A DNA stretch of 64,000 nucleotides from Heptranchias perlo (Eukaryota): contig NC_090346.1 in assembly GCF_035084215.1 (NCBI RefSeq), forward strand, positions 10,106,001 to 10,170,000, written 5' to 3'. Numbering within the stretch: position 1 is the stretch's first letter; each line of letters starts with the position of its first letter. A program made the position numbers and the translations under genes. The notes below the pieces were generated by a model that saw nothing but the letters and a program-made list of their open reading frames with translations, searched no databases and had not been told where the DNA came from. Positions 1 through 40,959 of this stretch are shown piece by piece.

Positions 1-1101
1 GACCTACATTTGTCTTCACTAATCTTTTTCGCTTGACATGTTTATAGAAGCTTTTACAGTCAGTTTTTATGATCCCTGCTAGTTTACTCTCATACTCTAT
101 TTTTCCCCTCTTAATCAACCTCTTCGTTCTCCTTTGCTGAATTCTGAACTGCTCCCAATTCTCAGGCTTGCCGCTTTTTATGGCAATTTTATATGTCTCC
201 TCTTTGGATCTAATACTATCCCTAATTTCTTTTGTAAGCCATGGTTGAGCCACCTTTCCTATTTTATTTTTGCGCCAGACAGGAATGAATAATTGTTGTA
301 ATTCCTGCACACGTTCTTTAAATATTAGCCATTGCCTATCCACCATCATCCCTTTTAGTAAAGTTCCCCAATCTATCATAGTCAACTCGCACCTCATACT
401 TTCATAATTTCCTTTATTTAGATTCAGGACCCTAGTTTCGGATTCAACTACTTCACTCTCCATCTTAATGAGGAATTCTATCATGTTATGGTCGCTCTTC
501 CCTAAGGGACCCCGCACAACAAGATTGTTAATTAATCCTTTCTCATTGCACAATACCCAGTCTAGGATCGCCTGTTCTCTAGTTGGTTCCTCAACGTATT
601 GGTCTAGAAATCCATCACGTACACACTCCAGGAATTCCTCCCCCACAGTATTATTGCTAATTTGGTTTGACCAATCTATATGTAACTTAAAGTCACCCAT
701 GATTATAGTTGTACCCTTCTTGCATACATCTCTAATTTCCTGTTTAATGCTCGCTCCTACATCTCCATTACTGTTTGGGGGCCTATAGACAATCCCCACC
801 AACGTTTTCTGCCCCTTGGTGTTTCTTAGCTCCACCTATACAGATTCCACATCGTGATTTTCCGAGCCAATATCTTTCCTCACTATTGCATTGATTTCCT
901 CCTTACTAACAACGCTACCCCACCTCCTTTCCCTTTTTGCCTGTCCTTCCTAAATATTGAATACCCCTGGATGTTCAGTTCCCATCCTTGGTCACCCTGC
1001 AGCCATGTCTCCGTAATCGCAACTATATCATACCCGTTAATATCTATCTGCGATGTTAATTCATCTACCTTATTGCGAATGCTCCTCGCATTTAGACACA
1101 A
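1..1101 (-). pseudogene. CR1 ORF2 apurinic-like endonuclease region, disrupted
   Basis: ORF 883-1101 reads NARSIRNKVDEL..ITETWL..GGGVALLV; similarity continues in other frames toward position 1. Confidence 0.85.
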
Positions 1102-1285
1102 TGGCTTTAGACTGTCTTTTTAAGATTGCTAGTCATCTTAGTTTTATTTTGCACTATGACCCTATTTGTTTTTTGCCCTTGTTTTCTCTGCCTTCCACTA
1201 TTGCTTCTTCCCTTTCTGTTTTTTTTTTCTATCCTTGTTTCCCCCTCCTCTGTCTCCCTGCTCAGGTTCCCTTCCCCCTGCCATT

Positions 1286-2216
1286 CTAGTTTAAACCTTC
1301 CCCAACAGCACTAGCAAACACCCCCGCGAGGACATCGGTCCCGGTCCTGCTCGGGTGTAACCCGTCCCGCTTGTACAGGTCCCACCTTCCCCAGAACCGG
1401 TCCCAATGTCCCAGGAATCTAAATCCCTCCCTCCTACACCATCCCTGCAGCCACGTATTCATCTGGTCTATTCTCCTGTTCCTATACTCACTAGCACGTG
1501 GTACTGGTAGTAATCCTGAGATCACTATCTTTGAGATCCTGCTTTTTAATTTATCTCCTAACTCCTTAAATTCACCTTGCAGGACCTCATCCTTTTTTTT
1601 AAACCTATGTCGTTGGTGCCGATATGGACCATGACTACTGGCTGTTCACCCTCCCCCTCCAGAATGCCCTGCAGCCGCTCCGTGACATCCTTGACCCTAG
1701 CACCAGGAAGGCAACATACCATCCTGGAGTCACGTTTGCAGCCGCAGAAACGCCTGTCTGTTCCCCTTACAATTGAATCCCCTATCACTGTAGCCTTGCC
1801 ACTCTTCTTCCTCCCCTCCTGTGCAGCAGAGCCACCCGTGGTGCCCCGAACCAGGCTCTTGCTGCTTTCCCCTGATAAGCCATCTCCCCCAACAGTATCC
1901 AAAGCAGAATATCTGTTTGAGAGGGAGATGGCCCCAGGGGACTCCTGCTCTATCTGACGGTCACCCATTTCCTTTCTGCCTGCGTAATCTTTACCTGCGG
2001 TGTGACCACCTCATTGAACGTGCTATCCACGATCGTCTCAGCATCACGAATGCTCCACAGTGAATCCACCCACAGCTCCAGCTCCGAAATGCAGTTAGCC
2101 AGTAGCTGCAGCTGGACACACTTCCTGCACACACGGTTGCCAGGGACACCTGTAGTGTCCATGACTTCCCACATGGTGCAGGAGGAGCATATCACGAGTG
2201 CGAGCTCTGCTACCAT
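1286..2216 (-). pseudogene. CR1 ORF1 (zinc finger + SGNH/GDSL esterase), frameshifted
   Basis: Three consecutive minus-strand ORFs (1950-2216, 1558-1968, 1286-1525) carry CSSCTMWE..CRKCVQL, VIGDSIVRG, VHIGTND and DGLHP motifs; frameshifts near 1955 and 1590. Confidence 0.9.
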
Positions 2217-2229
2217 GACTTGCCTTAGA

Positions 2230-3445
2230 TTTACACTGCGCTCACCTCTCGGACTCTCTTCCCGCTCTCGGACTCTCCGTTTACACTGCGCTCACCTCTA
2301 GGACTCTCTTCCCGCTCTCTAGACTCTCCTTTTACTCCACGCTCACCTCTCGGACTCTCCTTTTACACCGCCCTCAGCTCTCGGACTCTCCTCCCGCTCT
2401 CGGACTCTCCTTTTACACTGCGCTCACCTCTCGGACTCTCCTCCCGCTCTCAGACTCTCCTTTTACACTGCGCACACTCGGACTCTCCTTTTACACTGTG
2501 TTCACCTCTCAGACTCTCCTCTCACTCTCGGACTCTCCTTTTACACTGCGCTCACCTCTCGGACTCTCCTTTTACACTGCGCTCACCTCTCGGACTCACC
2601 TTTTACACTGTGCTCACCTCTCGGACTCTCCTTTTACACTGTGCTCACCTCTCGGACTCTCCTTTTACACTGTGCTCACCTCTCGGACTCTCCTTTTACA
2701 CTGCGCTCACCTCTCGGACTCTCCTTTTACACTGCGCTCACCTCTCGGACTCTCCTTTTACACTGTGCTCACCTCTCGGACTCTCCTTTTACACTGTGCT
2801 CACCTCTCGGACTCTCCTTTTACACTGCGCTCACCTCTCGGACTCTCCTTTTACACTGCGCTCACCTCTCAGATTCTCCTCCCGCTCTCGGACACTCATT
2901 TACACTGCGCTCACCTCTCGGACTCTCCTTTTACACTGTGCTCACCTCTCGGACTCTCCTTTTACACTGCGCTCACCTCTCGGACTCTCCTTTTACACTG
3001 CGCTCACCTCTCAGATTCTCCTCCCGCTCTCGGACACTCATTTACACTGCGCTCACCTCTCGGACTCTCCTTTTACACTGCGCTCACCTCTCGGACTCTC
3101 CTTTTACACTGTGCTCACCTCTCGGACTCTCCTTTTACACTGTGCTCACCTCTCGGACTCTCCTTTTACACTGTGCTCACCTCTCGGACTCTCCTTTTAC
3201 ACTGTGCTCACCTCTCGGACTCTCCTTTTACACTGTGCTCACCTCTCGGACTCTCCTTTTACACTGCGCTCACCTCTCGGTCTCTCCTCCCGCTCTCGGA
3301 CTCTCCTTTTACACTGCGCTCACCTCTCAGATTCTCCTCCCGTTCTCAGACTCTCCTTTTACACTGCGCTCACCTCTCGGACTCTCCTTTTACACTGCGC
3401 TCACCTCTCGGACTCTCCTCTTGCTCTCGGACTCTCCTTTTACTT
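2230..3445. repeat. 31-bp minisatellite at the CR1 5' end
   Basis: Unit acactg(c/t)gctcacctctcggactctcctttt repeated over about 1.2 kb with variant inserts; it produces the spurious repetitive ORFs at 2498-3785. Confidence 0.95.
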
Positions 3446-3589
3446 ATTCCCCCTGGTATGGCCAAGGGATGCTGACTTCTTTATGGCGGTTAACTGCTTT
3501 AGCCATTCATCGCCAGATCTGGCTAGGCCACATAAAGCACTATCGGGTCCTGCTCTCCTCTGCCAAAAATCCCCCTCCCCTTTAAACCT

Positions 3590-3957
3590 GCCGTCATCAC
3601 TTCCCTCCTCAAAAAACCCACCCATGACCCCTCTGTCCTTGCAAACTACCGCCCCCATCTCCAATCTCCCTTGCCTCTCCAAAGTCCTTGAACAAGTCCT
3701 TGTCGCCTCCCAAATCCGTGCCCATCTTTCCCGCGACTCCATGTTTGAATCCGTCCGATCAGGTTTCCACCCGTCACAGTACTGAAACAGCCATTATCAA
3801 AGTCACAAATTACATCCTTTGTGACTGTGACCGTGATAAACTATCCCTCTGCAACGTTGCCATCCTATTTGACCCTGAGCTGAGCTTCTGACCACATATC
3901 TGCTCCATCACAAAGACCGCCTACTTCCACCTCAACATTTCCCGTCTCCGCCCCTGC
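3590..3957 (+). mobile_element. L2 LINE reverse transcriptase fragments
   Basis: Reads NYRP/PISNLPCLSKVLE..SGFHP / HSTETAIIKVTNYIL across frameshifts, then LFDPELSF; same family as 19880-20845. Confidence 0.75.
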
Positions 3958-6226
3958 AAGGCCTGTTTAATTTGCTCATTGGTAATTTCACATTCTCTCT
4001 CCAATCCTTTACTGAATAGGAAGGAGAGTAGTTGATGATACCGATGCAGCGAGCAGTGCACGTTAAGACCTTGCCATATTTCTCACTACAGGTATTGTCG
4101 TCTCAGCTTTTGGGCTGCCTATAATTTTTGCAAGAGCGCAGTTGGTGAGTGTCATTGCCATGTTATTGAACAAAATGGGCTCCGCACATTTTCACAAATG
4201 CAGGGGAGAAGTAATGGCAAATATTTTTATACTTTTGCAGTCGGTACTTTAATATGTGTTAAAATGCCGCCCAATATGTGCGCTATTTTCATAGGTGCAT
4301 TTTTCATGTGATTAGCACATCCAGATTATCAGCAGATGAATGTTTACTGTCCAGTCTTGTCCTGGCTAAAGCCATGTTTTTGTCCAGGCTGTCACACCCC
4401 TCCATCCTAATTAGTGTTTAGAGTTTTCCTGGCTCCATGTCTAACGCTTTGCACATTTGCAGACAAGAACTGCAACCCCGATCCTTTTATGTTTCTCAGC
4501 ATTATTTTTGTTTCGATTCTTTTTTCCTTCACTATTTTTTTTGTTAACCTCTCTTATTTGCCTCAAGGTATATCTCCCTATACCCCCCTGGAGATTGCTG
4601 TTTAACAATGCTTTACCACTTCACCATCTTAGCTCTTTCTCCTACGGTCCCCTTCACAAGGGTGAAGTCCTTTCGACATTTATGTCTCCCTTCCATGCCT
4701 CCCAGGGCTGTAGATCAGCTGCAGGTTCCACTTTTGCTCTGATGTTTAAAATCACCTGCAGTACTGCTCACAGGTAGACTGGGCCCTGACTGGGGATGGA
4801 GCAGGAGGCGCTCCTGGGGCTGAGGCCAGAAGTGGAGGTATATCTAGGGTGGCGAGAGCAGCAGGGTCACTTCTGTATAAAATAAGGTATGTTTACATTA
4901 CTATTTATTATAAACTAGCTAATCTGTCATGGTATTGCAGGTAGATGACTGGGGTCTGGAGCATGGTTGTAATGTTTAGCTGCTGACTTGGTCTGTTTCT
5001 TTAACTCAAGATCGGAAAAGGCAGTAGGAAATGACTGCTTTCCTTTTGTGCTGTGGTTTGAAAATAAACTTTTTCCCTTGTGACTTGTTGGTATTTTATG
5101 AAAAGTGTCATATCTAGCATGTGATGCTCACTCTTAAAGCTTTGTCAAGATGGTGTGGTGGTGATGATGTCCTGACGATATACAGCGGGGGGGGGGGGGG
5201 GGGGGGACAGAGTCAGTTGGAACAGCAGGGCCGGCTATTAGAGCATCCATGCTATCTTTCCCAGCTTTCAGCCGTGCCTTGATGTTCCTGATGTCATGCA
5301 AGGTTGCGACTTATTGAATTTCTGCTGGATATATTCCATCATCTGCTTGTTTTTAGGTTGGAGGTTGGCCAACTCCTCCACCTGTTTCATCTTCCCTGGG
5401 CTGAGACGTCGCCTGCTGGCGTAAAATGGAAGAAACTCCTTCCTCAGTATGTGGCGTGTGTGTACAAGGTGGTGTGATTTGACACACAGTTTGTTCTTCC
5501 TCCCGCTGTAGGCCAAAGTAAGTGTGGCCTCACATCCCACTGCGAGGTACCTGAAACAAAATAGAATTGGGGTCAGAATGCTCAGCTGCACAAAATGGAT
5601 TCATGCATGCTCACAATTACAGTCGATCACAAGCATCATGTCCACAGCCTATAAGTGCTCAGCGTAAGTCACTTGTTGCGGTACTTGTTTGCATCGCATG
5701 CAAGGTTTGGGAGGGTTTAGGAGAGAAGTGAGCAGGTTTATTTGCAGTGACAGTGCTGTTGAACAAACAGTGCCACACCAGAGAGACAATCCATCTATTT
5801 GAGGGCTGAGGCCTGGGAGTGCGAGGTGGAGAAGCTAAAGATGCCAGTGGTGCCACCTGAGATGGTGGCTGGAATTTCCCGGGAATGTGCTCGCAGCCTG
5901 CAACTTTCCCCAAACATTCATTCTGACAGGTGGGAAGCCACAGGGCAGTGAGCGCATAAGTAAGAAGCCCATTTCCTGGCTCTTGGGTTGCAACATTTGT
6001 TCCAGATTGAGACAGTGGCTTGAATACATGCCCCTCTCAGCAGGGGCCATGCTTATAGCCCACCTGCTGGACATTAATCCATAACCATTTCAACATGAAC
6101 ACCACAGCAACCAAGCAGATGTGTAACAGCTGTAACACTTACCACTGATTGGGTCTTCTCCCAGTTGACCGGATGTGTGGCAGTCCATAGTGGACACAGC
6201 ACAGTTTCACAGACATGTCCTGGAAG

Positions 6227-6467
6227 TTTTTTTTAAATTCGTTCACGGGATGTGGGCGTCGCTGGCAAGGCCGGCATTTATTGCCCATCCCTAATTGCCC
6301 TCGAGAAGGTGGTGGTGAGCCGCCTTCTTGAACCGCTGCAGTCCGTGTGGTGACGGTTCTCCCACAGTGCTGTTAGGTAGGGAGTTCCAGGATTTTGACC
6401 CAGCGACAATGAAGGAACGGCGATATATTTCCAAGTCGGGATGGTGTGTGACTTGGAGGCGAACGTG
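6227..6467 (-). mobile_element. 3' end fragment of CR1-group LINE (same family as 14314-16107)
   Basis: Near-identical to 14314-14555; A-rich tail on the minus strand; aagtt present at both junctions. Confidence 0.85.
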
Positions 6468-6678
6468 CAAGTTGCCACTGTGTGGGAACGTGTCTTCGAG
6501 AAGAGGCTGCCAGTCGCCTGTGAGAAGAGAGTTGATATTCACTAAAATCTGAGTCTTTTGCCAAGAATGATAGATGAGAACAGAGTCTGCAGCTGAAGAC
6601 AACTGGCACAGAATACACATATATCTGAGGTACCTGTTGAAACTCCTGAAATTTCACATATCCGAGGGTTCGCCCACT

Positions 6679-9310
6679 GAGTCTATATGGGTAGAACTGA
6701 AAAATAAGAAGGGAGAGAACACTGATAGGATTGTACGACAGGCCCCCAAATAGTCAACGGGAAATTGAGGAGCAAATATGTAAGGAGATTACAGACAGCT
6801 GCAAGAAAAATAGGGTGGTAATAGTAGGGGACTTTAACTTTCCCAACATTGACTGGGACAGCCATAGCATTAGGGGCTTGGATGGAGAGAAATTTGTTGA
6901 GTGTATTCAGGAGGAATTTCTCATTCAGTATGTGGATGGCCCGACTAGAGAGGGGGCAAAACTTGACCTCCTCTTGGGAAATAAGGAAGGGCAGGTGACA
7001 GAAGTGTTAGTGAGGGATCACTTTGGGACCAGCGATCATAATTCCATTAGTTTTAAGATAGCTATGGAGAAGGATAGGTCTGGCCCAAAAGTTAAAATTC
7101 TAAATTGGGGAAAGGCCAATTTTGATGGTATTAGACAGGAACTTTCAGAAGTTGATTGGGAGAGTCTGTTGGCAGGCAAAGGGACGTCTGGTAAGTGGGA
7201 GGCTTTCAAAAGTGTGTTAACCAGGGTTCAGGGTAAGCACATTCCTTATAAAGTGAAGGGCAAGGCTGGTAGAAGTAGGGAACCTTGGATGACTCGGGAG
7301 ATTGAGGCCCTAGTCAAAAAGAAGAAGGAGGCATATGACATGCATAGACTGTTGGGATCAAGTGGATCCCTTGAAGAGTATAGAGATTGCCGGAGTAGAG
7401 TTAAGAGAGAAATCAGGAGGGCAAAAAGGGGACATGAGATTGCTTTGGCAGATAAGGCAAAGGAGAATCCAAAGAGCTTCTACAAATACATAAAGGGCAA
7501 AAGAGTAACTAGGGAGAGAGTAGGGCCTCTTAAGGATCAACAAGGTCATCTATGTGCGGAACCACAAGAGATGGGTGAGATCCTAAATGAATATTTCACA
7601 TCGGTATTTACGGTTGAGAAAGGCATGGATGTTAGGGAACTTGGGGAAATAAATAGTGATGTCTTGAGGAGTGTACATATTACAGAGAGGGAGGTGCTGG
7701 AAGTCTTAATGCGTATCAAGGTAGATAAATCTCCGGGACCTGATGAAATGTATCCCAGGACGTTATGGGAGGTTAGGGAGGAAATTGCGGGTCCCCTAGC
7801 AGAGATATTTGAATCATCGACAGCTACAGGTGAGGTGCCTGAAGATTGGAGGGTAGCAAATGTTGTGCCTTTGTTTAAGAAGGGCGGCAGGGAAAAGCCT
7901 GAGAACTACAGACCGGTGAGCTTGACATCTGTAGTGGGTAAGTTGTTAGAGGGTATTCTGAGAGACAGGATCTACAGGCATTTGGAGAGGCAGGGACTGA
8001 TTAGGAACAATCAGCATGGTTTTGTGAGAGGAAAATCATGTCTCACGAATTTGATTGAATATTTTGAAGGGGTAACCAAGAAGATAGATGAGGGCTGTGC
8101 AGTAGACGTGGTCTACATGGACTTTAGCAAAGCCTTTGACAAGGTACCGCATGGTAGGTTGTTACATAAGGTTAAATCTCACGGGATCCAAGGTGAGGTA
8201 GCCAATTGGATACAAAATTGGATTGACGACAGAAGACAGAGGGTGGTTGTAGAGGGTTGTTTTTCAAACTGGAGGCCTGTGACCAGCGGTGTGCCTCAGG
8301 GATTGGTGCTGGGTCCGCTGTTATTTGTTATTTATATTAATGATTTGGATGAGAATTTAGGAGACATGGTTAGTAAGTTTGCAGATGACACCAAGATTGG
8401 TGGCATTGTGGACAGTGAAGAAGGTTATCTAGGATTGCAACGGGATCTTGATCAATTGGGCCAGTGGGCCGATGAATGGCAGATGGAGTTTAATTTAGAT
8501 AAATGTGAGGTGATGCATTTTGGTAGATCGAATTGGGCCAGGACCTACTCCGTTAATGGTAGGGCGTTGGGGAGAGTTATAGAGCAAAGAGATCTAGGAG
8601 TACAGGTTCATAGCTCCTTGAAAGTGGAGTCACAGGTGGATAGGGTGGTGAAGAAGGCATTCAGCATGTTTGGTTTCATTGGTCAGAACATTGAATACAG
8701 GAGTTGGGATGTCTTGTTGAAGTTGTACAAGACATTAGTAAGGCCACACTTGGAATACTGTGTACAGTTCTGGTCACCCTATTATAGAAAGGATATTATT
8801 AAACTAGAAAGAGTGCAGAAAAGATTTACTAGGATGCTACCGGGACTTGATGGTTTGACTTATAGGGAGAGGTTGGATAGACTGAAACTTTTTTCCCTGG
8901 AGAGTAGGAGGTTTAGGGGTGATCTTATAGAAGTCTATAAAATAATGAGGGGCATAGATAAGGTAGATAGTCAAAATCTTTTCCCAAAGGTAGGGGAGTC
9001 TATAACGAGGGGGCATAGATTTAAGGTGAGAAGGGAGAGATACAAAAGGGTCCAGAGGGGCAATTTTTTCACTCAAAGGGTGGTGAGTGTCTGGAACGAG
9101 CTGCCAGAGGCAGTAGTAGAGGCGGGTACAATTTTGTCTTTTAATAAGCATTTGGACAGTTACATGGGTAAGATGGGTATAGATGGATATGGGCCAAGTG
9201 CAGGCAATTGGGACTAGCTTAGTGGTATAAACTGGGCGACATGGACATGTTGGGCCGAAGGGCCTGTTTCCATGTTGTAAACTTCTATGATTCTATGATT
9301 CTATGATTCA
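6679..9310 (+). mobile_element. 5'-truncated young CR1 LINE
   Basis: Starts inside the APE domain (ESIWVELKNKKG) and ends in a (ttctatga)n tail at 9283-9310. Confidence 0.96.
6731..9217 (+). CDS. CR1 ORF2 (partial endonuclease + reverse transcriptase), open 828 aa
   Basis: GDFNFP, LDLLL, SDH (APE); NYRPVSLTS, QHGF, DFSKAFDKVPH, GVPQG, FADD (RT); RPHLEYCVQFWSP (CR1 C-terminus). No true start codon because the copy is truncated. Confidence 0.93.
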   Translation: MYDRPPNSQREIEEQICKEITDSCKKNRVVIVGDFNFPNIDWDSHSIRGLDGEKFVECIQEEFLIQYVDGPTREGAKLDLLLGNKEGQVTEVLVRDHFGTSDHNSISFKIAMEKDRSGPKVKILNWGKANFDGIRQELSEVDWESLLAGKGTSGKWEAFKSVLTRVQGKHIPYKVKGKAGRSREPWMTREIEALVKKKKEAYDMHRLLGSSGSLEEYRDCRSRVKREIRRAKRGHEIALADKAKENPKSFYKYIKGKRVTRERVGPLKDQQGHLCAEPQEMGEILNEYFTSVFTVEKGMDVRELGEINSDVLRSVHITEREVLEVLMRIKVDKSPGPDEMYPRTLWEVREEIAGPLAEIFESSTATGEVPEDWRVANVVPLFKKGGREKPENYRPVSLTSVVGKLLEGILRDRIYRHLERQGLIRNNQHGFVRGKSCLTNLIEYFEGVTKKIDEGCAVDVVYMDFSKAFDKVPHGRLLHKVKSHGIQGEVANWIQNWIDDRRQRVVVEGCFSNWRPVTSGVPQGLVLGPLLFVIYINDLDENLGDMVSKFADDTKIGGIVDSEEGYLGLQRDLDQLGQWADEWQMEFNLDKCEVMHFGRSNWARTYSVNGRALGRVIEQRDLGVQVHSSLKVESQVDRVVKKAFSMFGFIGQNIEYRSWDVLLKLYKTLVRPHLEYCVQFWSPYYRKDIIKLERVQKRFTRMLPGLDGLTYRERLDRLKLFSLESRRFRGDLIEVYKIMRGIDKVDSQNLFPKVGESITRGHRFKVRRERYKRVQRGNFFTQRVVSVWNELPEAVVEAGTILSFNKHLDSYMGKMGIDGYGPSAGNWD

Positions 9311-10391
9311 AAGCAAACTTTTCATCGCTATCAAACTCCATTGTCGAGAAGATACCCTTGAATTGCTGGGTGGTATCCGTGGATACTTCACTTGCCATCA
9401 AGGACTGCAGCTCTACAGATGAGCACATGGAACAAATGGCAACTATAGTGAACTCACGTTGGAATGACAACATGGGAAAAGAGCTCAGTGGCGCACAGAA
9501 CTCACACCTGGATGTTTTGCCAAAGGGTTTACTTTCACGGTTTGAGTCAGAGTGACTTAGATCGCTTCTGTGAAAGGAGTGTGGGAGTGAGCAGGAAACA
9601 GTGATTAGGTCAGGCAGCTTCCACAGTCAAGACTGCAAGGAGAGGCTTGAGAGGCTTCGCTGCAATATTCCAGTCAGCGGAGTGCCTGGCCATCGGGAGG
9701 GAGGGTGGTGATCGGTCGGGAGGGACATGGGGGGGTCAGGGGGCCACAATCGGTAGTGAGGGAGATCGGAGGAGGCATGGAGCGGTGGTGATCGGGGCAG
9801 TGATTCTGGGTGAAAGTGTGCACATGTTTCCTGCCTGCCATTTGGGGGCTCAGTAGGTGGTGTAGCACCTGAAGAATGAGCATTACACGTCCAAATTTAA
9901 CCCCCATTGAGTCTGGAGCTAACAAAGGCACCAACGTGTTTTTCAGTGGCAGATGCGCTGAGGTGAGATAAGAGCAAGAGAAAGCAATGTCACCGAGATG
10001 AGGCTGGATGGCCTTTGAGATGGAGAGAATTCTTGCCATGAGGCTTCCCTGTCTGGAAAGGGTCCCACTTTACACATGCTTTGATTATTTTGGCCCCATT
10101 GGATCCCAGCGGATTTCAATGGTCTGCTGCATTTAGTCCCCCAGGAGTCCATGATCAAGCTGGAGACACGGAATTGGCCCAGGCTTCTTTGGGGCGCTCT
10201 TCCTAGACCCTTCCCTCCCCCTCCTCCCGTGCCTCATATCCGAGCCTGAGGAAGCAATGGAACAAAATGCAACTCACTTTTAAAGCATCTACGGAACATA
10301 ACCTACTGAGCACAAAAGGGAAAGTTCACAAAATTCTCACTTTGGTTGTTTCCAGTTGGCCTCTTTTCTGAACAACTATGACGGTGACATG

Positions 10392-10750
10392 GCTGGTCTC
10401 CAGCTGTGCTCCCGACTGGCCGGTCTCCGGCTAAGCTCCCGACCGACCGGTCTCCGACTGGCCGGTCTCCGGCTGTGCTCCCAACTGGCTGAGCTCCCGA
10501 CTGGCCGGTCTCCGGCTAAGCTCCCGACCGACCGGTCTCCGACTGGCCGGTCTCCGGCTGTGCTCCCAACTGGCTGAGCTCCCGACTGGCCGGTCTCCGG
10601 CTGAGCTCCCGACCGACCGGTCTCCGACTGGCCGGTCTCCGGCTGTGCTCCCAACTGGCTGGTCTCTGGCTGAGCTCCCGACTGGCCGGTCTCCAGCTGA
10701 GCTCTCGACTGGCCGGTCTCCGACTGGCCCGTCTCCGGCTGTGCTCCTGG
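10392..10750. repeat. GC-rich compound minisatellite (about 27-bp and 15-bp units)
   Basis: Repeats of ctggccggtctccggctgagctcccga and ctggccggtctccga. Confidence 0.9.
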
Positions 10751-11463
10751 CCTAGAATGAGCGAGGAGGACAAACACAAAGAAGCCTAAGTGGAGATACC
10801 GATCACCGATTAATCGGTCAGAATACTTGCAGTGCCCAGTCAGCAGAATTCCAAAGGTGTTCTCTCAGGGGCGGGATGTTTCTTGCAGCGTATCGGAAGG
10901 AATGCTCAGACTGAGACTGGCAGGTCTCTATTCCTAGAAGAAAATGAGGAAAAGACACAACACTAAGTGCAGATACTGTTTTTTGCACAGATCACAGAAA
11001 AATTGCGAATGGTCAGAAAACTTGCACCTCCCAGGTAGCAGACTCCGAGGGCTTTTGCTTGCCAAATGGTAAATCTTGGTCCAGATGCGCCAAATAAATG
11101 CACAAAAGATGAAAATTGCCTGAGATCTCTGCACCTGGAAGTAAGAAAACACAGCTCTCACAGTTACATTACAAACAAAAACACCAGGAAAATCAGCATG
11201 GAGGACAAGTAATGTCCTGCAGCAGCAGACAAATGGCAAAGGGATAACATTTGGACAAAGGAGAGGGCATGGTGGGAAGCTGGGTGTACGATGGACAAAA
11301 GGGAGCACATGGTCCTTACCAAATGTACTGCAGCTTTACGTGCACCAGATAAAAGGCACGGGGAGGAACATGTGGAGCAAAATGCAGCAAATAAAATGTA
11401 CTGGCAGGCAGTTTTGCATGGATCAAACCAAATGCAGTGAACACAATATGCAGCTTGTAGTGA

Positions 11464-11650
11464 ACCATACTCACAGACTTTCACACAGTGAAGATAACCA
11501 TACTCACAGACTTTCACACAGTGAAGATAACCATACTCACAGACTTTCACACAGTGAAGATAACCATACTCACAGACTTTCACACAGTGAAGATAACCAT
11601 ACTCACAGACTTTCACACAGTGAAGATAACCGTACCCACGGACTTTCACA
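11464..11650. repeat. 33-bp tandem repeat, about 5.5 copies
   Basis: Unit accatactcacagactttcacacagtgaagata. Confidence 0.95.
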
Positions 11651-12061
11651 GCATGGAGACCTGAAGGATTCCTCAAGATGAATTGGCATAATATACTGTG
11701 CTCATGAGGGTTAGTGTAGCAAAGAAAAATGTGAGGCCACATAGAGCAAGCACCAGTCTGACTACTATGATTCATGCAGTCGTTGGTGATAGTACCGCAA
11801 GTACTACTGAGGTTAAAGTGCAACTACCAGGAATCCACGAATCACTACAGTCATTAAAGCAATTGTACTCGTAGCTCACACAACTACTATGAACTCACAA
11901 AATACTACTGTGAATAAAGCAGCAATCAACAAGAAGGTTAACGTGCAACTACTATGGACTCACAAATATTAAAGCAGCAATCAACAACTACAAAGCACAG
12001 CCAAAGATACCACAAAGATCCAAGCAACTCCAGGCCTGAGAGCAGCAAGCAACTTCCAGCA

Positions 12062-12300
12062 CAGCAACTCGGTCAAAGTTCCCTCAGCGGGGAGCAACTC
12101 GGTCAAAGTTCCCTCAGTGGGCAGCAACTCGGTCAAAGTTCCCTCAGCAGGGAGCAACTCGGTCAAAGTTCCCTCAGTGGGCAGTAACTCGGTCAAAGTT
12201 CCCTCAATTGGGCAGTAACTCAGTCAAAGTTCCCTCAACGGGCAGTAACTCAGTCAAAGTTCCCTCAGCAGGCAGCAACTTAGTTAAAGTTCCCCTCAGC
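12062..12300. repeat. 30-bp tandem repeat, about 8 copies
   Basis: Unit gcagcaactcggtcaaagttccctcagtgg. Confidence 0.95.
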
Positions 12301-12959
12301 AGGCTCGGTCGGTACAACAGGCTCGATCAAGGTCTTCCTCCACACTAATGGCAGCTACCATGCTTGGCTAAGAGTTAACGAATGCGTATGCGCAGCCCAG
12401 TGTCGATTGTGCATGCGCAGCCCAGTGTCCTAAATTCTTTGAATGAGACTCCATTTTATAATAAATGTATATGAAGTGCTGCATGTGCTGATACATGGCA
12501 GCATTAGGGCACCTGACAGCCTGTATGTTTTGGCAACGTGAAAAGATGAACCTCTCTGAATTGTGAAGACAGGAATCTGGTTAAATACAATAATCAGTGC
12601 AAAAACCTGGAGTATGTTTTCAAGATTGAATATTGCCTTGCAGCTTACTGACTCAGTCATAAAAAGTCTTGCTCTCTGTAGCTGTTCTGTGAAAAACAGA
12701 CATAGGAAAAGAAAGAAAAATATGAACTTGTGATTATACAGTGCCTTTCATGACCTCAGGATGTCCCAAAGTGCTTTACAGCCAATGAGGTGCTTTTTGT
12801 TTTGAAGTGTAGTCACTCTTATCTTTTGGGAAACGCAGCAACCAATTTTTCTACCTTTAAAACCCTTCTTAAAACATCTCTCCATTTGAGCTTTCGATCC
12901 CCCCTCTCCTATTGTCACTGCTATTGACCTGTGAGGGGCCCTGCAACATTCCTCTATGT

Positions 12960-14164: not shown

Positions 14165-16275
14165 TTTCTGACGAGATATTAAACCGTCTGCCTTCTCAGG
14201 TGCACGCAAAAAATCCCACGGATCTATTTTGAAGAAGAGCAGGGGAGTGCTCCCCAGTGTCCTGGCCTATATTTATCCCTCAACCAACATCACTAAAAAA
14301 CAGATTATCTGGTCTTTTTTTTAATTCGTTCATGGGATGTGGGCGTCGCTGGCAAGACCAGCATTTATTGCCATCCCGAATTGCCCTTGAGAAGGTGGTG
14401 GTGAGCCGCCTTCTTGAACCGCTGCAGTCCGTGTGGTGAAGATTCTCCCACAGTGCTGTTAGGAAGGGAGTTCCAGGATTTTGACCCAGCAACGATAAAG
14501 GAACGGCGATATATTTCGAAGTCGGGATGGTGTGTGACTTGGAGGGGAACGTGCAGATGGTGTTGTTCCCATGTGCCTGCTGCTCTTGTCCTTCTAGGTG
14601 GTAGAGATCATGGGTTTGGGAGGTGCTGTTGAAGAAGCCTTGGCGAGTTGCTGCAGTGCATCCTGTGGATGGTACACACTGCAGCCACTGGGCGCCGGTG
14701 GTGAAGGGAGTGAATGTTTAGGGTGGTGGATGGAGTGCCAATCAAGCGGGCTGCTTTGTCCTGGATGGTGTCGAGCTTCTTGAGTGTTGTTGGAGCTGCA
14801 CTCATCCAGGCAAGTGGAGAGTATTCCATCACACTCCTGACTTGTGCCTTGTAGATGGTGGAAAGGCTTTGGGGAGTCAGGAGGTGAGTCACTCGCCGCA
14901 GAATACCCAGCCTCTGACCTGCTCTTGTAGCCACAGTATTTATGTGGCTGATCCAGTTTCTGGTCAATGGTGACCCCCAGGATGTTGATGGTGAGGGATT
15001 CGGCAATGGTAATGCTGTTGAATGTCAAGGGGAGGTGGTTAGACTCTCTCTTGTTGGAGATGGTCATTGCCTGGCACTTAAGTGGCAAGTAACATTTGTG
15101 CCACACATCAGCCCAAGCCTTGATGTTGTCCAGGTCTTGCTGCATGCGGGCACGGACTGCTTTATTATCTGAGGGATTGTGAATGGAACTGAACACTGTG
15201 CAATCATCAGCGAACATCCTCATTTCTGACCTTATGATGGAGGGAAGGTCATTGATGAAGCAGCTGAAGATGATTGGGCCTAGGACACTGCCCTGAGGAA
15301 CTCCTGCAGCAATGCCCTGGGGCTGAGATGATTGGTCTCCATCAACCACTATCATCTTCCTTTGTGCTAGGTGTGACTCCAGCCACTGGAGAGTTTTCCC
15401 CCTGATTCCCATTGACTTCAATTTTACTAAGGCTCCTTGGTGCCACAATCGGTCAAATGCTGCCTTGATGTCAAGGGCAGTCACTCTCACTTCACCTCTG
15501 GAATTCAGCTCTTTTGTCCATGTTTGGACCAAGGCTGTAATGAGGTCTGGAGTCGAGTGGTCCTGGCGGAACCCAAACTGAGCATCGGTGAGCAGGTTAT
15601 TGGTGAGTAAGTGCCGCTTGATAGCATTGTCGGCGACACCATCCATCACTTTGCTGATGATTGAGAGTAGACTGATGGGGCGGTAATTGGCCGGATTGGA
15701 TTTATCCTGCTTTTTGTGGACAGGACATACCTGGGCAATTTTCCACATTGTCGGGTAGATGCCAGTGTTGTAGCTATACTGGAACAGCTTGGCTAGAGGC
15801 GCAGCTAGTTCTGGAGCACAAGTCTTCAGCACTACAGCCGGGATGTTGTCGGGGCCCATAGCCTTTGCTGTATCCAGTGCACTCAGCCGTTTCTTGATAT
15901 CACTTGGAGTGAATCGAATTGGCTGAAGACTGGCTTCCGTGATGGTGGGGATATCGGGAGGAGGCCGAGGTGGATCATCCACTCGGCACTTCTGGCTGAA
16001 GATGGTTGCAAACGCTTCAACCTTGTCTTTTATACTCCTGTGCTGGACTCCGCCATCATTGAGGATCAGGATGTTCACGGAGCCTCCTTGTTTAATTGTC
16101 CACCACTATTATCTCGTTGTTGTTTGTAGGACCTTGCTGCGCGCAAATTGGCTGTCGCGTTTCCTACATTACAACAGTGACTACACTTCAAAAGTACTTA
16201 ATCCGCTGTAAAGTGTTTTGGGACGTCCTGAGGTTGTGAAAGGCACTGTGTATAAATGCAAGTCTTTCTTTTTTA
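14165..16275 (+). mobile_element. SacSINE1-like Deu-SINE split by a LINE insertion (14165-14313 and 16108-16275)
   Basis: Deu core (gaagagcaggggag...gtcctggcc...atttatccctcaaccaacatc) stops at cagattatctggtc and resumes at attatctcgttgttgtttgtaggacc. Confidence 0.8.
14314..16107 (-). mobile_element. 5'-truncated CR1-group (non-canonical CR1/Crack-like) LINE, RT region
   Basis: ORF 14594-16078: GPDNIP, NYRPISLLS, QFGFR, DIKAAFD, GVPQGSVLGP, FADD; frameshift to ORF 14608-15006; A-rich tail. Confidence 0.92.
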
Positions 16276-39397: not shown

Positions 39398-39843
39398 NNN
39401 NNNNNNNNNNNNNNNNNNNNNNNNNNNNNNNNNNNNNNNNNNNNNNNNNNNNNNNNNNNNNNNNNNNNNNNNNNNNNNNNNNNNNNNNNNNNNNNNNNNN
39501 NNNNNNNNNNNNNNNNNNNNNNNNNNNNNNNNNNNNNNNNNNNNNNNNNNNNNNNNNNNNNNNNNNNNNNNNNNNNNNNNNNNNNNNNNNNNNNNNNNNN
39601 NNNNNNNNNNNNNNNNNNNNNNNNNNNNNNNNNNNNNNNNNNNNNNNNNNNNNNNNNNNNNNNNNNNNNNNNNNNNNNNNNNNNNNNNNNNNNNNNNNNN
39701 NNNNNNNNNNNNNNNNNNNNNNNNNNNNNNNNNNNNNNNNNNNNNNNNNNNNNNNNNNNNNNNNNNNNNNNNNNNNNNNNNNNNNNNNNNNNNNNNNNNN
39801 NNNNNNNNNNNNNNNNNNNNNNNNNNNNNNNNNNNNNNNNNNN
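39398..39843. other. Assembly gap (446 N), followed by a (CA)n-rich microsatellite at 39884-39961
   Basis: Run of N characters. Confidence 1.
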
Positions 39844-40959
39844 NTGCGATAGTGTAAAATGGGTGATAGCGAGTCGGCAGCTCGCACACACGCACACGTA
39901 TGCACACACACGCACACGTATACACACACATGCACACGCGTGCACAAATGCGCACACACACTGCGAACCCCTCCCAGTGTAACGTGACAGAGGTTGAATG
40001 TTTAATTGAGGTGAGTTGGTTCAAAATTTCACCTTTTACAACCAAATTAAAAGGAATCTCATCCTCAGAGGTGTATTTTGATCTAGACATCTCTTACGCA
40101 GAAGACTCTGCCGGAGATAACAGAATTTACCACAGTCTTCACAGATGCAGCTGAAAAAAAAACCCCAGAGATTTATGGAAGCTCATTGAATTTCCTTTAT
40201 GCTTTGCAGATCAGAAATACATTTTTCATGGTCTGATATGCGTAACACTTACGCTGTGAGATTAGTACACAGCATTGGAAATAATCTCACACGTCATATG
40301 TGACCTCTAGGACAAGTGCCTGAGTAAACTGCCTCCAAATAAATCAACCCTCTCCACGTTGCTTAGCAATTCACCTACTTATTCATTAAAGTGCCCTCCT
40401 CTTTCATTCATTTCTCTCAGTCCTGCCACTTCACTTTTTTATTCCTTTCCTCATATACATTCTTAGGAATGTCTCTTATTTGCCTGTTCTTTCATTTTTT
40501 TTTCACTTCATCATTTTCAATCATTTCTCCATTTTGGTCAAGTTTTGTTCAATTTGCCTTGCTCCTCTGCCAATTTCCGTTATTTCTTGTCCTTCCACTT
40601 TTCTATCTTTTTCTCTTTGTACTAATATTTAATTTCAAATTCCCTCATTGTTCCTCCCCACCCCCATTCATCCCCATATTGCAGGTATAGGGCAGCAACA
40701 TTCCAAGGTACCTGACAAAGTAGTTACACAACATGGTAGATTACGAAACATAAGCAGCACTCCAGGAGATTGGGGGCAAAATTCCTTCTTTTACCAAAAA
40801 AGAGGAGAATGCCTATTTTTCTCTGGACTTAAAAACCTTCCAACTAAATCACATTTAGGCATTGCAACTTTCCAGACTGCGTTTTTCCACCATTTTGTTA
40901 GCGGGCTGTCAATAAACAAGGAGATCCAGGCGCTCTCCCTTCTTTCGTTAAGTTTCTCC

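Follow-up and report, generated by a model that had tools for sequence, protein, structure and literature searches.

Which gene once occupied the minus strand between positions 9398 and 5233 of the window (the whole 64,000-nucleotide stretch of Heptranchias perlo contig NC_090346.1 analysed here), and was it a host gene or part of a transposon? The first-pass annotation had read here a decayed, intron-containing, ZSWIM3-like transposase gene of Mutator type, and this reading is supported by the domains of sister copies and by their common intron position. From our analysis, the window very probably holds a dead, internally deleted copy of a multi-copy MULE family without inverted-repeat ends. 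Its catalytic core and both termini are lost, and a CR1 and a LINE tail have been gained in its exons. The missing core, the multi-copy status, and the non-inverted ends are all beyond what the window alone shows.

Structure of the Window Copy

Comparison with sister copies resolved the element into the following pieces, given in the order of transcription.

9399..12416, minus strand: 5′ non-coding part of the element, from blastn to sister copies, reaching about 12414-12416
9307..9398, minus strand: exon 1, coding part before the CR1, starting with ATG at 9398 and aligned in copies
6657..9306, plus strand: 5′-truncated CR1 LINE in exon 1, from empty sites in sister copies, with a frame at 6701-9217
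6634..6656, minus strand: end of exon 1 after the CR1, from alignment with empty-site copies
6518..6633, minus strand: intron 1, GT-AG, phase 0, 116 nt, with splice sites kept among copies and the join of protein P0002
6471..6517, minus strand: first part of exon 2, from alignment with sister copies
6227..6470, minus strand: 3′ tail of a second LINE family within exon 2, at a gap of about 36 bases relative to sister copies
6143..6226, minus strand: second part of exon 2 (CCVHYG ... RPNQ), holding the first Cys of the WRKY/GCM1-like zinc site
5551..6142, minus strand: intron 2, GT-AG, phase 2, 592 nt, from sister-copy splice sites and RNA-type contigs of copy C14c
5235..5550, minus strand: 5′ part of exon 3, with the remaining DNA-binding domain and a helical linker (23 genome matches)
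5234..5235, minus strand: junction of an in-frame deletion of ~1.46 kb with a 2-bp GC overlap, from a gap of 1426-1476 bases relative to 4 sister copies
5140..5234, minus strand: C-terminal coding remnant adjoining a second deletion
3956..5139, minus strand: 3′ non-coding part of the element, interrupted by another CR1 at about 3955

The order of these pieces matches that of annotated shark proteins (tblastn with exon 3: E 1.8e-26 and 9.6e-30). Exon 1 (9307..9398) shares 81% identity with residues 1-31 of sawshark protein P0002, and the second part of exon 2 is 74% identical to residues 117-143 of horn-shark protein P0151. The single frameshift that had been proposed lies in exon 3, near 5310, and all the peptide motifs named in the first-pass annotation occur on the minus strand within 5233-9398.

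The larger insertion was rightly recognized as a plus-strand CR1 LINE; its boundaries, placed at 6679-9310, needed correction, since in sister copies free of the insertion 9307 is directly followed by 6656, and the CR1 therefore spans 6657-9306. The proposed join of MEFDSDEKFAL to TQWAN was mistaken, the TQWAN peptide being CR1 DNA read backwards. A 4-bp overlap, TGAA, is present on both sides of the CR1, the tail is (TTCTATGA)n, and the 838-aa frame matches the Pfam families RVT_1 (E 2e-34) and Exo_endo_phos_2. A great many near-identical relatives of this CR1 (frame 6701-9217) occur in DNA and RNA-type runs, and its family is a young one; an empty-site joint for the window CR1 was not among the joints listed from the DNA run. 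The smaller insertion, a LINE tail, is present at about 6227-6470 as proposed, where it substituted for about 36 bases (12 codons) of the element as compared with sister copies; the HSGN frame suggested upstream of it gives way to SHTVAT. The same tail terminates a LINE at about 14.3-16.1 kb of the window (14314-16105), which is 5′-truncated, has a 503-aa open frame, and represents the family that supplied the tail.

Two deletions shortened the coding region. The one at 5235/5234 carried away intron 3 along with the DDE core and the SWIM finger, so that none of the 186 core residues is represented in the window, and the second, near 5140 and about 1.7 kb relative to copy C1a, took the C-terminal part. 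The 5′ non-coding part contains tandem repeats with units of 27/42, 33, and 30 bp; the outermost 5′ terminus of the copy is lost, and no good 5′-terminus motif occurs in the window. On the other side, the element continues outside the window beyond the CR1 at about 3955, and a search of 80 kb of flanking sequence past the window edge yielded no 3′ terminus. With neither terminus, the target duplication of this copy is unreadable. Elsewhere, window positions 1-3955 hold the second CR1 with its 5′ region and a 31-bp tandem array (2230-3419), and positions 39398-39844 are 447 N within a low-complexity stretch.

Introns and Splicing

The first-pass intron at 6142-5551 (GT-AG, phase 2) stands as described, with the donor GT in 14 of 16 copies and the acceptor AG in 19 of 20, the window included. 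A second intron, suggested at ~6632 and in phase 1, does exist; sister copies show it at 6633-6518 and in phase 0. Among the copies aligning there its donor GT is kept in 7/9 and its acceptor AG in 13/13, and the same exon join is found in annotated sawshark protein P0002. The family gene has a third intron of 92-98 nt inside the core. A divergent copy, C4c (L038, G000:C4:57940729-57950728; about 70% identity), is without intron 3, which implies a gain or loss of this intron during the history of the transposon lineage.

Two runs of one sample, which we guessed to be RNA, gave contigs (called RNA-type here) that skip a 577-nt intron 2 with GT..AG and whose loose end matches copy C14c (L036, G000:C14:27244499-27254498). 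In the same contigs, a foreign upstream piece, absent from the family loci compared, is joined at the intron-1 acceptor. These joins indicate that the splice sites are in use in at least one sister copy, and the spliced C14c product is probably a chimeric transcript. No RNA-type contig covered the window transposase exons at 96% likeness, which says nothing on their expression, and no RNA data set was listed for the window stretch.

Domains, Catalytic Core, and Homologues

Three GT-AG introns split the gene of the family, whose product has a ZSWIM3_N-like domain first, then an RNase H-fold core bearing D-D-E, CxxH, and W, and then a SWIM finger. The profile check proposed in the first-pass annotation came out in two ways: none of the 5 element pieces in the window matched ZSWIM3, FAR1, or MULE in Pfam, and the sister copies did produce matches, so that the family was assigned through sister copies and homologues. 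Among 15 natural stretches searched against Pfam, sister copies matched ZSWIM1-3_RNaseH-like (PF21056; E 1.7e-24, 86.6 bits) and MULE (PF10551; E 5.3e-12, 46.5 bits against a cut-off of 27.6), and copy L031 matched SWIM (PF04434; E 2.4e-5, 24.2 bits against a cut-off of 19.6). Both things on which the first-pass reading had been made to depend, a profile match and related copies with an intron at the same position, were thus obtained. For the putative N-terminal WRKY/GCM1-type domain the matches were mixed, with ZSWIM3_N at E 5.6e-4 in family pieces (below the cut-off), 2.2e-14 in the sawshark homologue (over the cut-off), and no match in the window pieces. The alignment profile matched AFT2 (4.2e-4) and, weakly, WRKY1 (0.069) in its N-terminal part.

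The DDE triad was assigned by homology, with copies scored against a horn-shark homologue. The first D is kept in 12 of 14 copies, the second in 9 of 15 (E in 4), and the E in 13 of 14, while among the copies scored the C of CxxH is kept in 12/13, its H in 10/13, and the first W in 10/11. For the predicted model of the horn-shark homologue (pLDDT 83.5), the best fold match was the ISCth4 transposase (E 2.7e-8), which was also matched by sequence profile (E 0.0014).

An HMMER profile search of proteins gave 331 relatives, unlike word-index searches with longer proteins, which gave nothing. The closest named relatives (20 named of 30 examined) are from the sharks Heterodontus, Pristiophorus, Carcharodon, and Cetorhinus (E 3e-52 to 7e-27); other named relatives are from crustaceans, molluscs, lancelets, an acorn worm, a tick, insects, and a hydrozoan, along with one moray eel. 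Several of the annotated shark proteins (P0002, P0004, P0005) lack the DDE core, keep the DNA-binding half, and break near the point of the window deletion. P0004, in which white and basking shark fall in one 90% cluster, is a possible domesticated gene. A stricter first look for a close ortholog of this white/basking-shark gene in the genome found none, the best hit (E 6.5e-34, 43% identity) being among family copies only.

A genome search with the ZSWIM3_N family found one gene alone, on contig C1203 (L044 / L193-L194, G000:C1203:145600-158300), and missed the transposon family. This gene is a candidate for a ZSWIM3-like host gene. Its exon 1 is open (ZSWIM3_N E 1.5e-9) and ends at a GT donor in the phase-2 position after the RP.Q-R motif, as at intron 2 of the family; in its RNase H-like exon, S stands where the second D would be. 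The phase-2 donor at the intron-2 place would fit common descent of the host-like gene and the transposon family.

Copy Number, Decay, and the Question of Domestication

An 80-residue piece of exon 3 gave 23 matches at 21 loci, the window included, in the 3.25-Gb genome; these loci share about 87% identity and are spread over many contigs. Stops, frame breaks, or deletions were found in all 21 copies examined, none of which is intact. Exon and intron have diverged equally from their sisters (87.3% and 87.9% identity). A ZSWIM3 host gene should appear as a single intact locus under purifying selection; here the gene is multi-copy and its exon is as diverged as its intron. Omega is about 0.77 over 17 copies and about 0.64 for the window copy, whose exon 3 departs from the majority sequence of the family at 14 of 240 bases (5 synonymous and 9 non-synonymous changes). 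From these values we infer that the window copy decayed roughly neutrally since its insertion.

We considered whether the window copy could have been a domesticated or repressor-like gene for the DNA-binding half that was later pseudogenised. The core deletion is in frame, and DDE-less proteins with nearly the same break are annotated in sawshark, horn shark, and white and basking shark, as such a history would have it; against it, selection cannot be read from as few as 5 synonymous and 9 non-synonymous changes, the copy carries a frameshift and two exonic insertions, and its deletion junction was found in no other copy compared. We regard domestication at this locus as unlikely and retain the reading of a dead transposon copy.

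Some copies show structure of their own. In a subfamily of seven (L025, L026, L027, L030, L036, L041, L042) a CR1 lies at one intron-1 position, with one junction common to 4 copies and the other side common to 6. Three of these copies have E instead of the second catalytic D, and the outer ends of the subfamily copies were looked for and not found. On G000:C1275 and C1499, many similar partial matches suggest that the element lies in a locally amplified block.

Element Ends and Target Site Duplications

Walking outward through sister copies, we found that the element starts sharply with CGCTGTGACTAG... at its 5′ end and finishes with a different motif, ...TAGACGCGACC, at its 3′ end, after short hairpins and 32-bp repeats. 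Both ends stop sharply at a duplicated target. The 5′ and 3′ end patterns gave 117 and 134 matches, as against 4 and 0 for reversed controls. Among the matches listed (100 of each end), 29 same-strand end pairs were chosen by eye, in 2 of which the 3′ end was unreadable. A 9-bp target duplication with at most 2 mismatches was present in 20 of the other 27, compared with 0.91 on average and 6 at most in 1,000 shuffles; 17 of the 27 sites read equally well as 10-bp duplications. The duplication is absent from 7/27 pairs, including the transposase-bearing copy C1a. Of the three transposase-bearing copies with both ends, two have it, C4b at 8/9 and C1b (16,030 bp) at 7/9. Whole elements range from 235 bp up to tens of kb.

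A duplication of 9 bp is within the 8-11 bp required of a MULE. Zisupton elements are SWIM-bearing transposons of fish with an 8-bp duplication, a short TIR, and a KDZ-type enzyme; they were ruled out, as the duplication here is 9 bp and Pfam assigns MULE rather than KDZ. Helitrons were ruled out by the 9-bp duplication.

Cargo and the 32-bp Subterminal Repeat

One element-to-LINE junction was found again in 6 of 13 whole elements tested, 5 of the 6 with their own duplication, so the LINE piece moved with the element. The transposase gene was found in 0/13 whole elements tested, and most elements with these ends lack it. The number of 32-bp units per whole element varies from 0 to 118. The 32-bp subterminal unit of the window copy forms a 35.1-kb array outside the window (G000:C25:10062445-10097508; L045, L046, L281-L283), directly after the element's own 3′ pieces, with 1,082 motif matches of which 1,065 are spaced by 32.

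The capture of foreign DNA allows a different explanation, in which the ends are those of some other mobile element, with the ZSWIM3-like gene carried as captured, Pack-type cargo unrelated to the enzyme at work. The capture itself is clear from the recurrent LINE junction, and the gene is missing from most elements, as cargo could be. However, 9-bp duplications and the CxxH and W residues are marks of MULEs, being described in excerpts of PMC5499845 as a 9-bp duplication, (C/D)xxH 15-45 residues after the second D, and W before the E. Moreover, the cargo would have to be a complete catalytic transposase, an intact donor was not found (the best host-like relative in the genome is 24-33% identical), and with MULE and LINE queries no other transposase was noticed in whole elements. 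We therefore hold a cargo origin of the gene to be very unlikely, and we take the ends and the transposase to belong to one MULE family. In a lizard, DNA transposons are known to carry extraneous cargo, according to an excerpt of PMC3014272, so that cargo in the shark family is not new in itself.

Absent or Strongly Degenerate Terminal Inverted Repeats

The long TIR of classical MULEs was not seen. No inverted repeat above shuffles was found in any of 18 whole elements when the first and last 300 bases, or half of the element, were compared. No inverted copy of the 5′ end turned up when one was searched for, and an inverted piece in L147 is internal. The outer 20 letters, inverted in register, match at 7-13 positions per element and at 10/20 for typical ends, which may be a worn TIR and not the lack of one. 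TIRs are thus absent or strongly degenerate in the family. That the family is an ordinary long-TIR MULE with decayed inverted repeats, or that its ends are misplaced, is hardly tenable, for although the copies are old and have these 10/20 identities at the very ends, the two ends break off abruptly at the duplicated target, the outer 300 bases on the two sides resemble each other no more than shuffles do (which largely excludes this reading for the family), and each end is so well conserved among copies that decay in place cannot account for the asymmetry. The unlike ends, the 9-bp duplication, and the MULE transposase together describe a non-TIR MULE in a vertebrate.

Proposed Mechanism and Significance

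Presumably the transposase, made from a spliced transcript, attached to both dissimilar ends, probably via its N-terminal zinc domain and the subterminal repeats. Our best guess is that the unlike ends would be recognised by separate binding sites at each end together with a few common terminal letters. By analogy with Aedes Muta1, as presented in excerpts of PMC5499845, the enzyme would then have cut the element out and inserted it with a 9-bp stagger, and it may also have moved deleted derivatives carrying LINE pieces. Action of the family transposase on these ends is presumed from sequence and analogy, all 21 copies examined being broken.

In a wider view, which we put forward tentatively and at slightly less than even chances, sharks hosted a TIR-free, transposing Mutator lineage, the first in a vertebrate, that was a mobile relative of the ZSWIM1/3 host genes with a shared intron position and that repeatedly spawned DNA-binding-only genes, carried LINE fragments, and seeded satellites out of its subterminal repeat. 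Clear vertebrate Mutator elements had been doubted; here the motifs of the enzyme, the duplicated target sites, and the number of copies are all present. Descriptions of autonomous non-TIR MULEs come from plants and flatworms, and the vertebrate case offers defined asymmetric ends for tests of TIR-free recognition. The family ties ZSWIM3-type genes to a mobile relative and a transposon repeat to a 35-kb satellite. Annotation tools based on TIRs would likely miss such a family, and its relatives in public databases carry the labels of ZSWIM3 host genes.

Comparison with Known Systems

Excerpts of PMC6446971 report no matchable MULE transposase in vertebrates and pose the absence of MULEs there as a question. 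The sole human MuDR listed in an excerpt of PMC5753468 is Ricksha, MULEs are called rare among animals in one of PMC8277862, and shark genomes are described as dominated by LINEs and SINEs in one of PMC5381603; excerpts of PMC10236294 and PMC8293314 gave general background only. In the articles searched, a non-TIR MULE from sharks or other vertebrates was nowhere described, though such a family may be filed in Repbase or Dfam.

The family shares its Pfam domains with the ZSWIM1/ZSWIM3 host genes and the C1203 gene. Unlike these host genes, it is dispersed, decayed, and flanked by duplications, whereas both exons located for the C1203 gene are open in frame, and this gene is 24-33% identical to the family. 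The ZSWIM3(-like) or uncharacterised RefSeq proteins of Heterodontus, Pristiophorus, Carcharodon, and Cetorhinus are its best relatives and have the same exon joins, although they are annotated as host genes. ISCth4 (IS256 family, PDB 6XG8), itself a Mutator-family transposase, differs in being bacterial, 13% identical, and copy-out/paste-in.

Among eukaryotic elements, Aedes Muta1 resembles the family in its DDE core, its CxxH 21 residues after the second D, its W before the E, and its N-terminal zinc domain (putative in the family), and also in its 9-bp duplication, subterminal tandem repeats, and non-autonomous derivatives with captured DNA (excerpts of PMC5499845). Muta1 has 145-bp TIRs that are 97% alike, whereas the shark family has two dissimilar ends, reaches tens of kb in length, and lives in a vertebrate host. 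VANDAL of Arabidopsis and Curupira of Schistosoma are listed as being without TIRs in excerpts of PMC6446971; they differ in their plant and flatworm hosts, a second gene like VANC was not noticed in the shark family, and by the features described there they are like the shark family in their missing or degenerate TIRs, 9-bp duplication, and SWIM finger.
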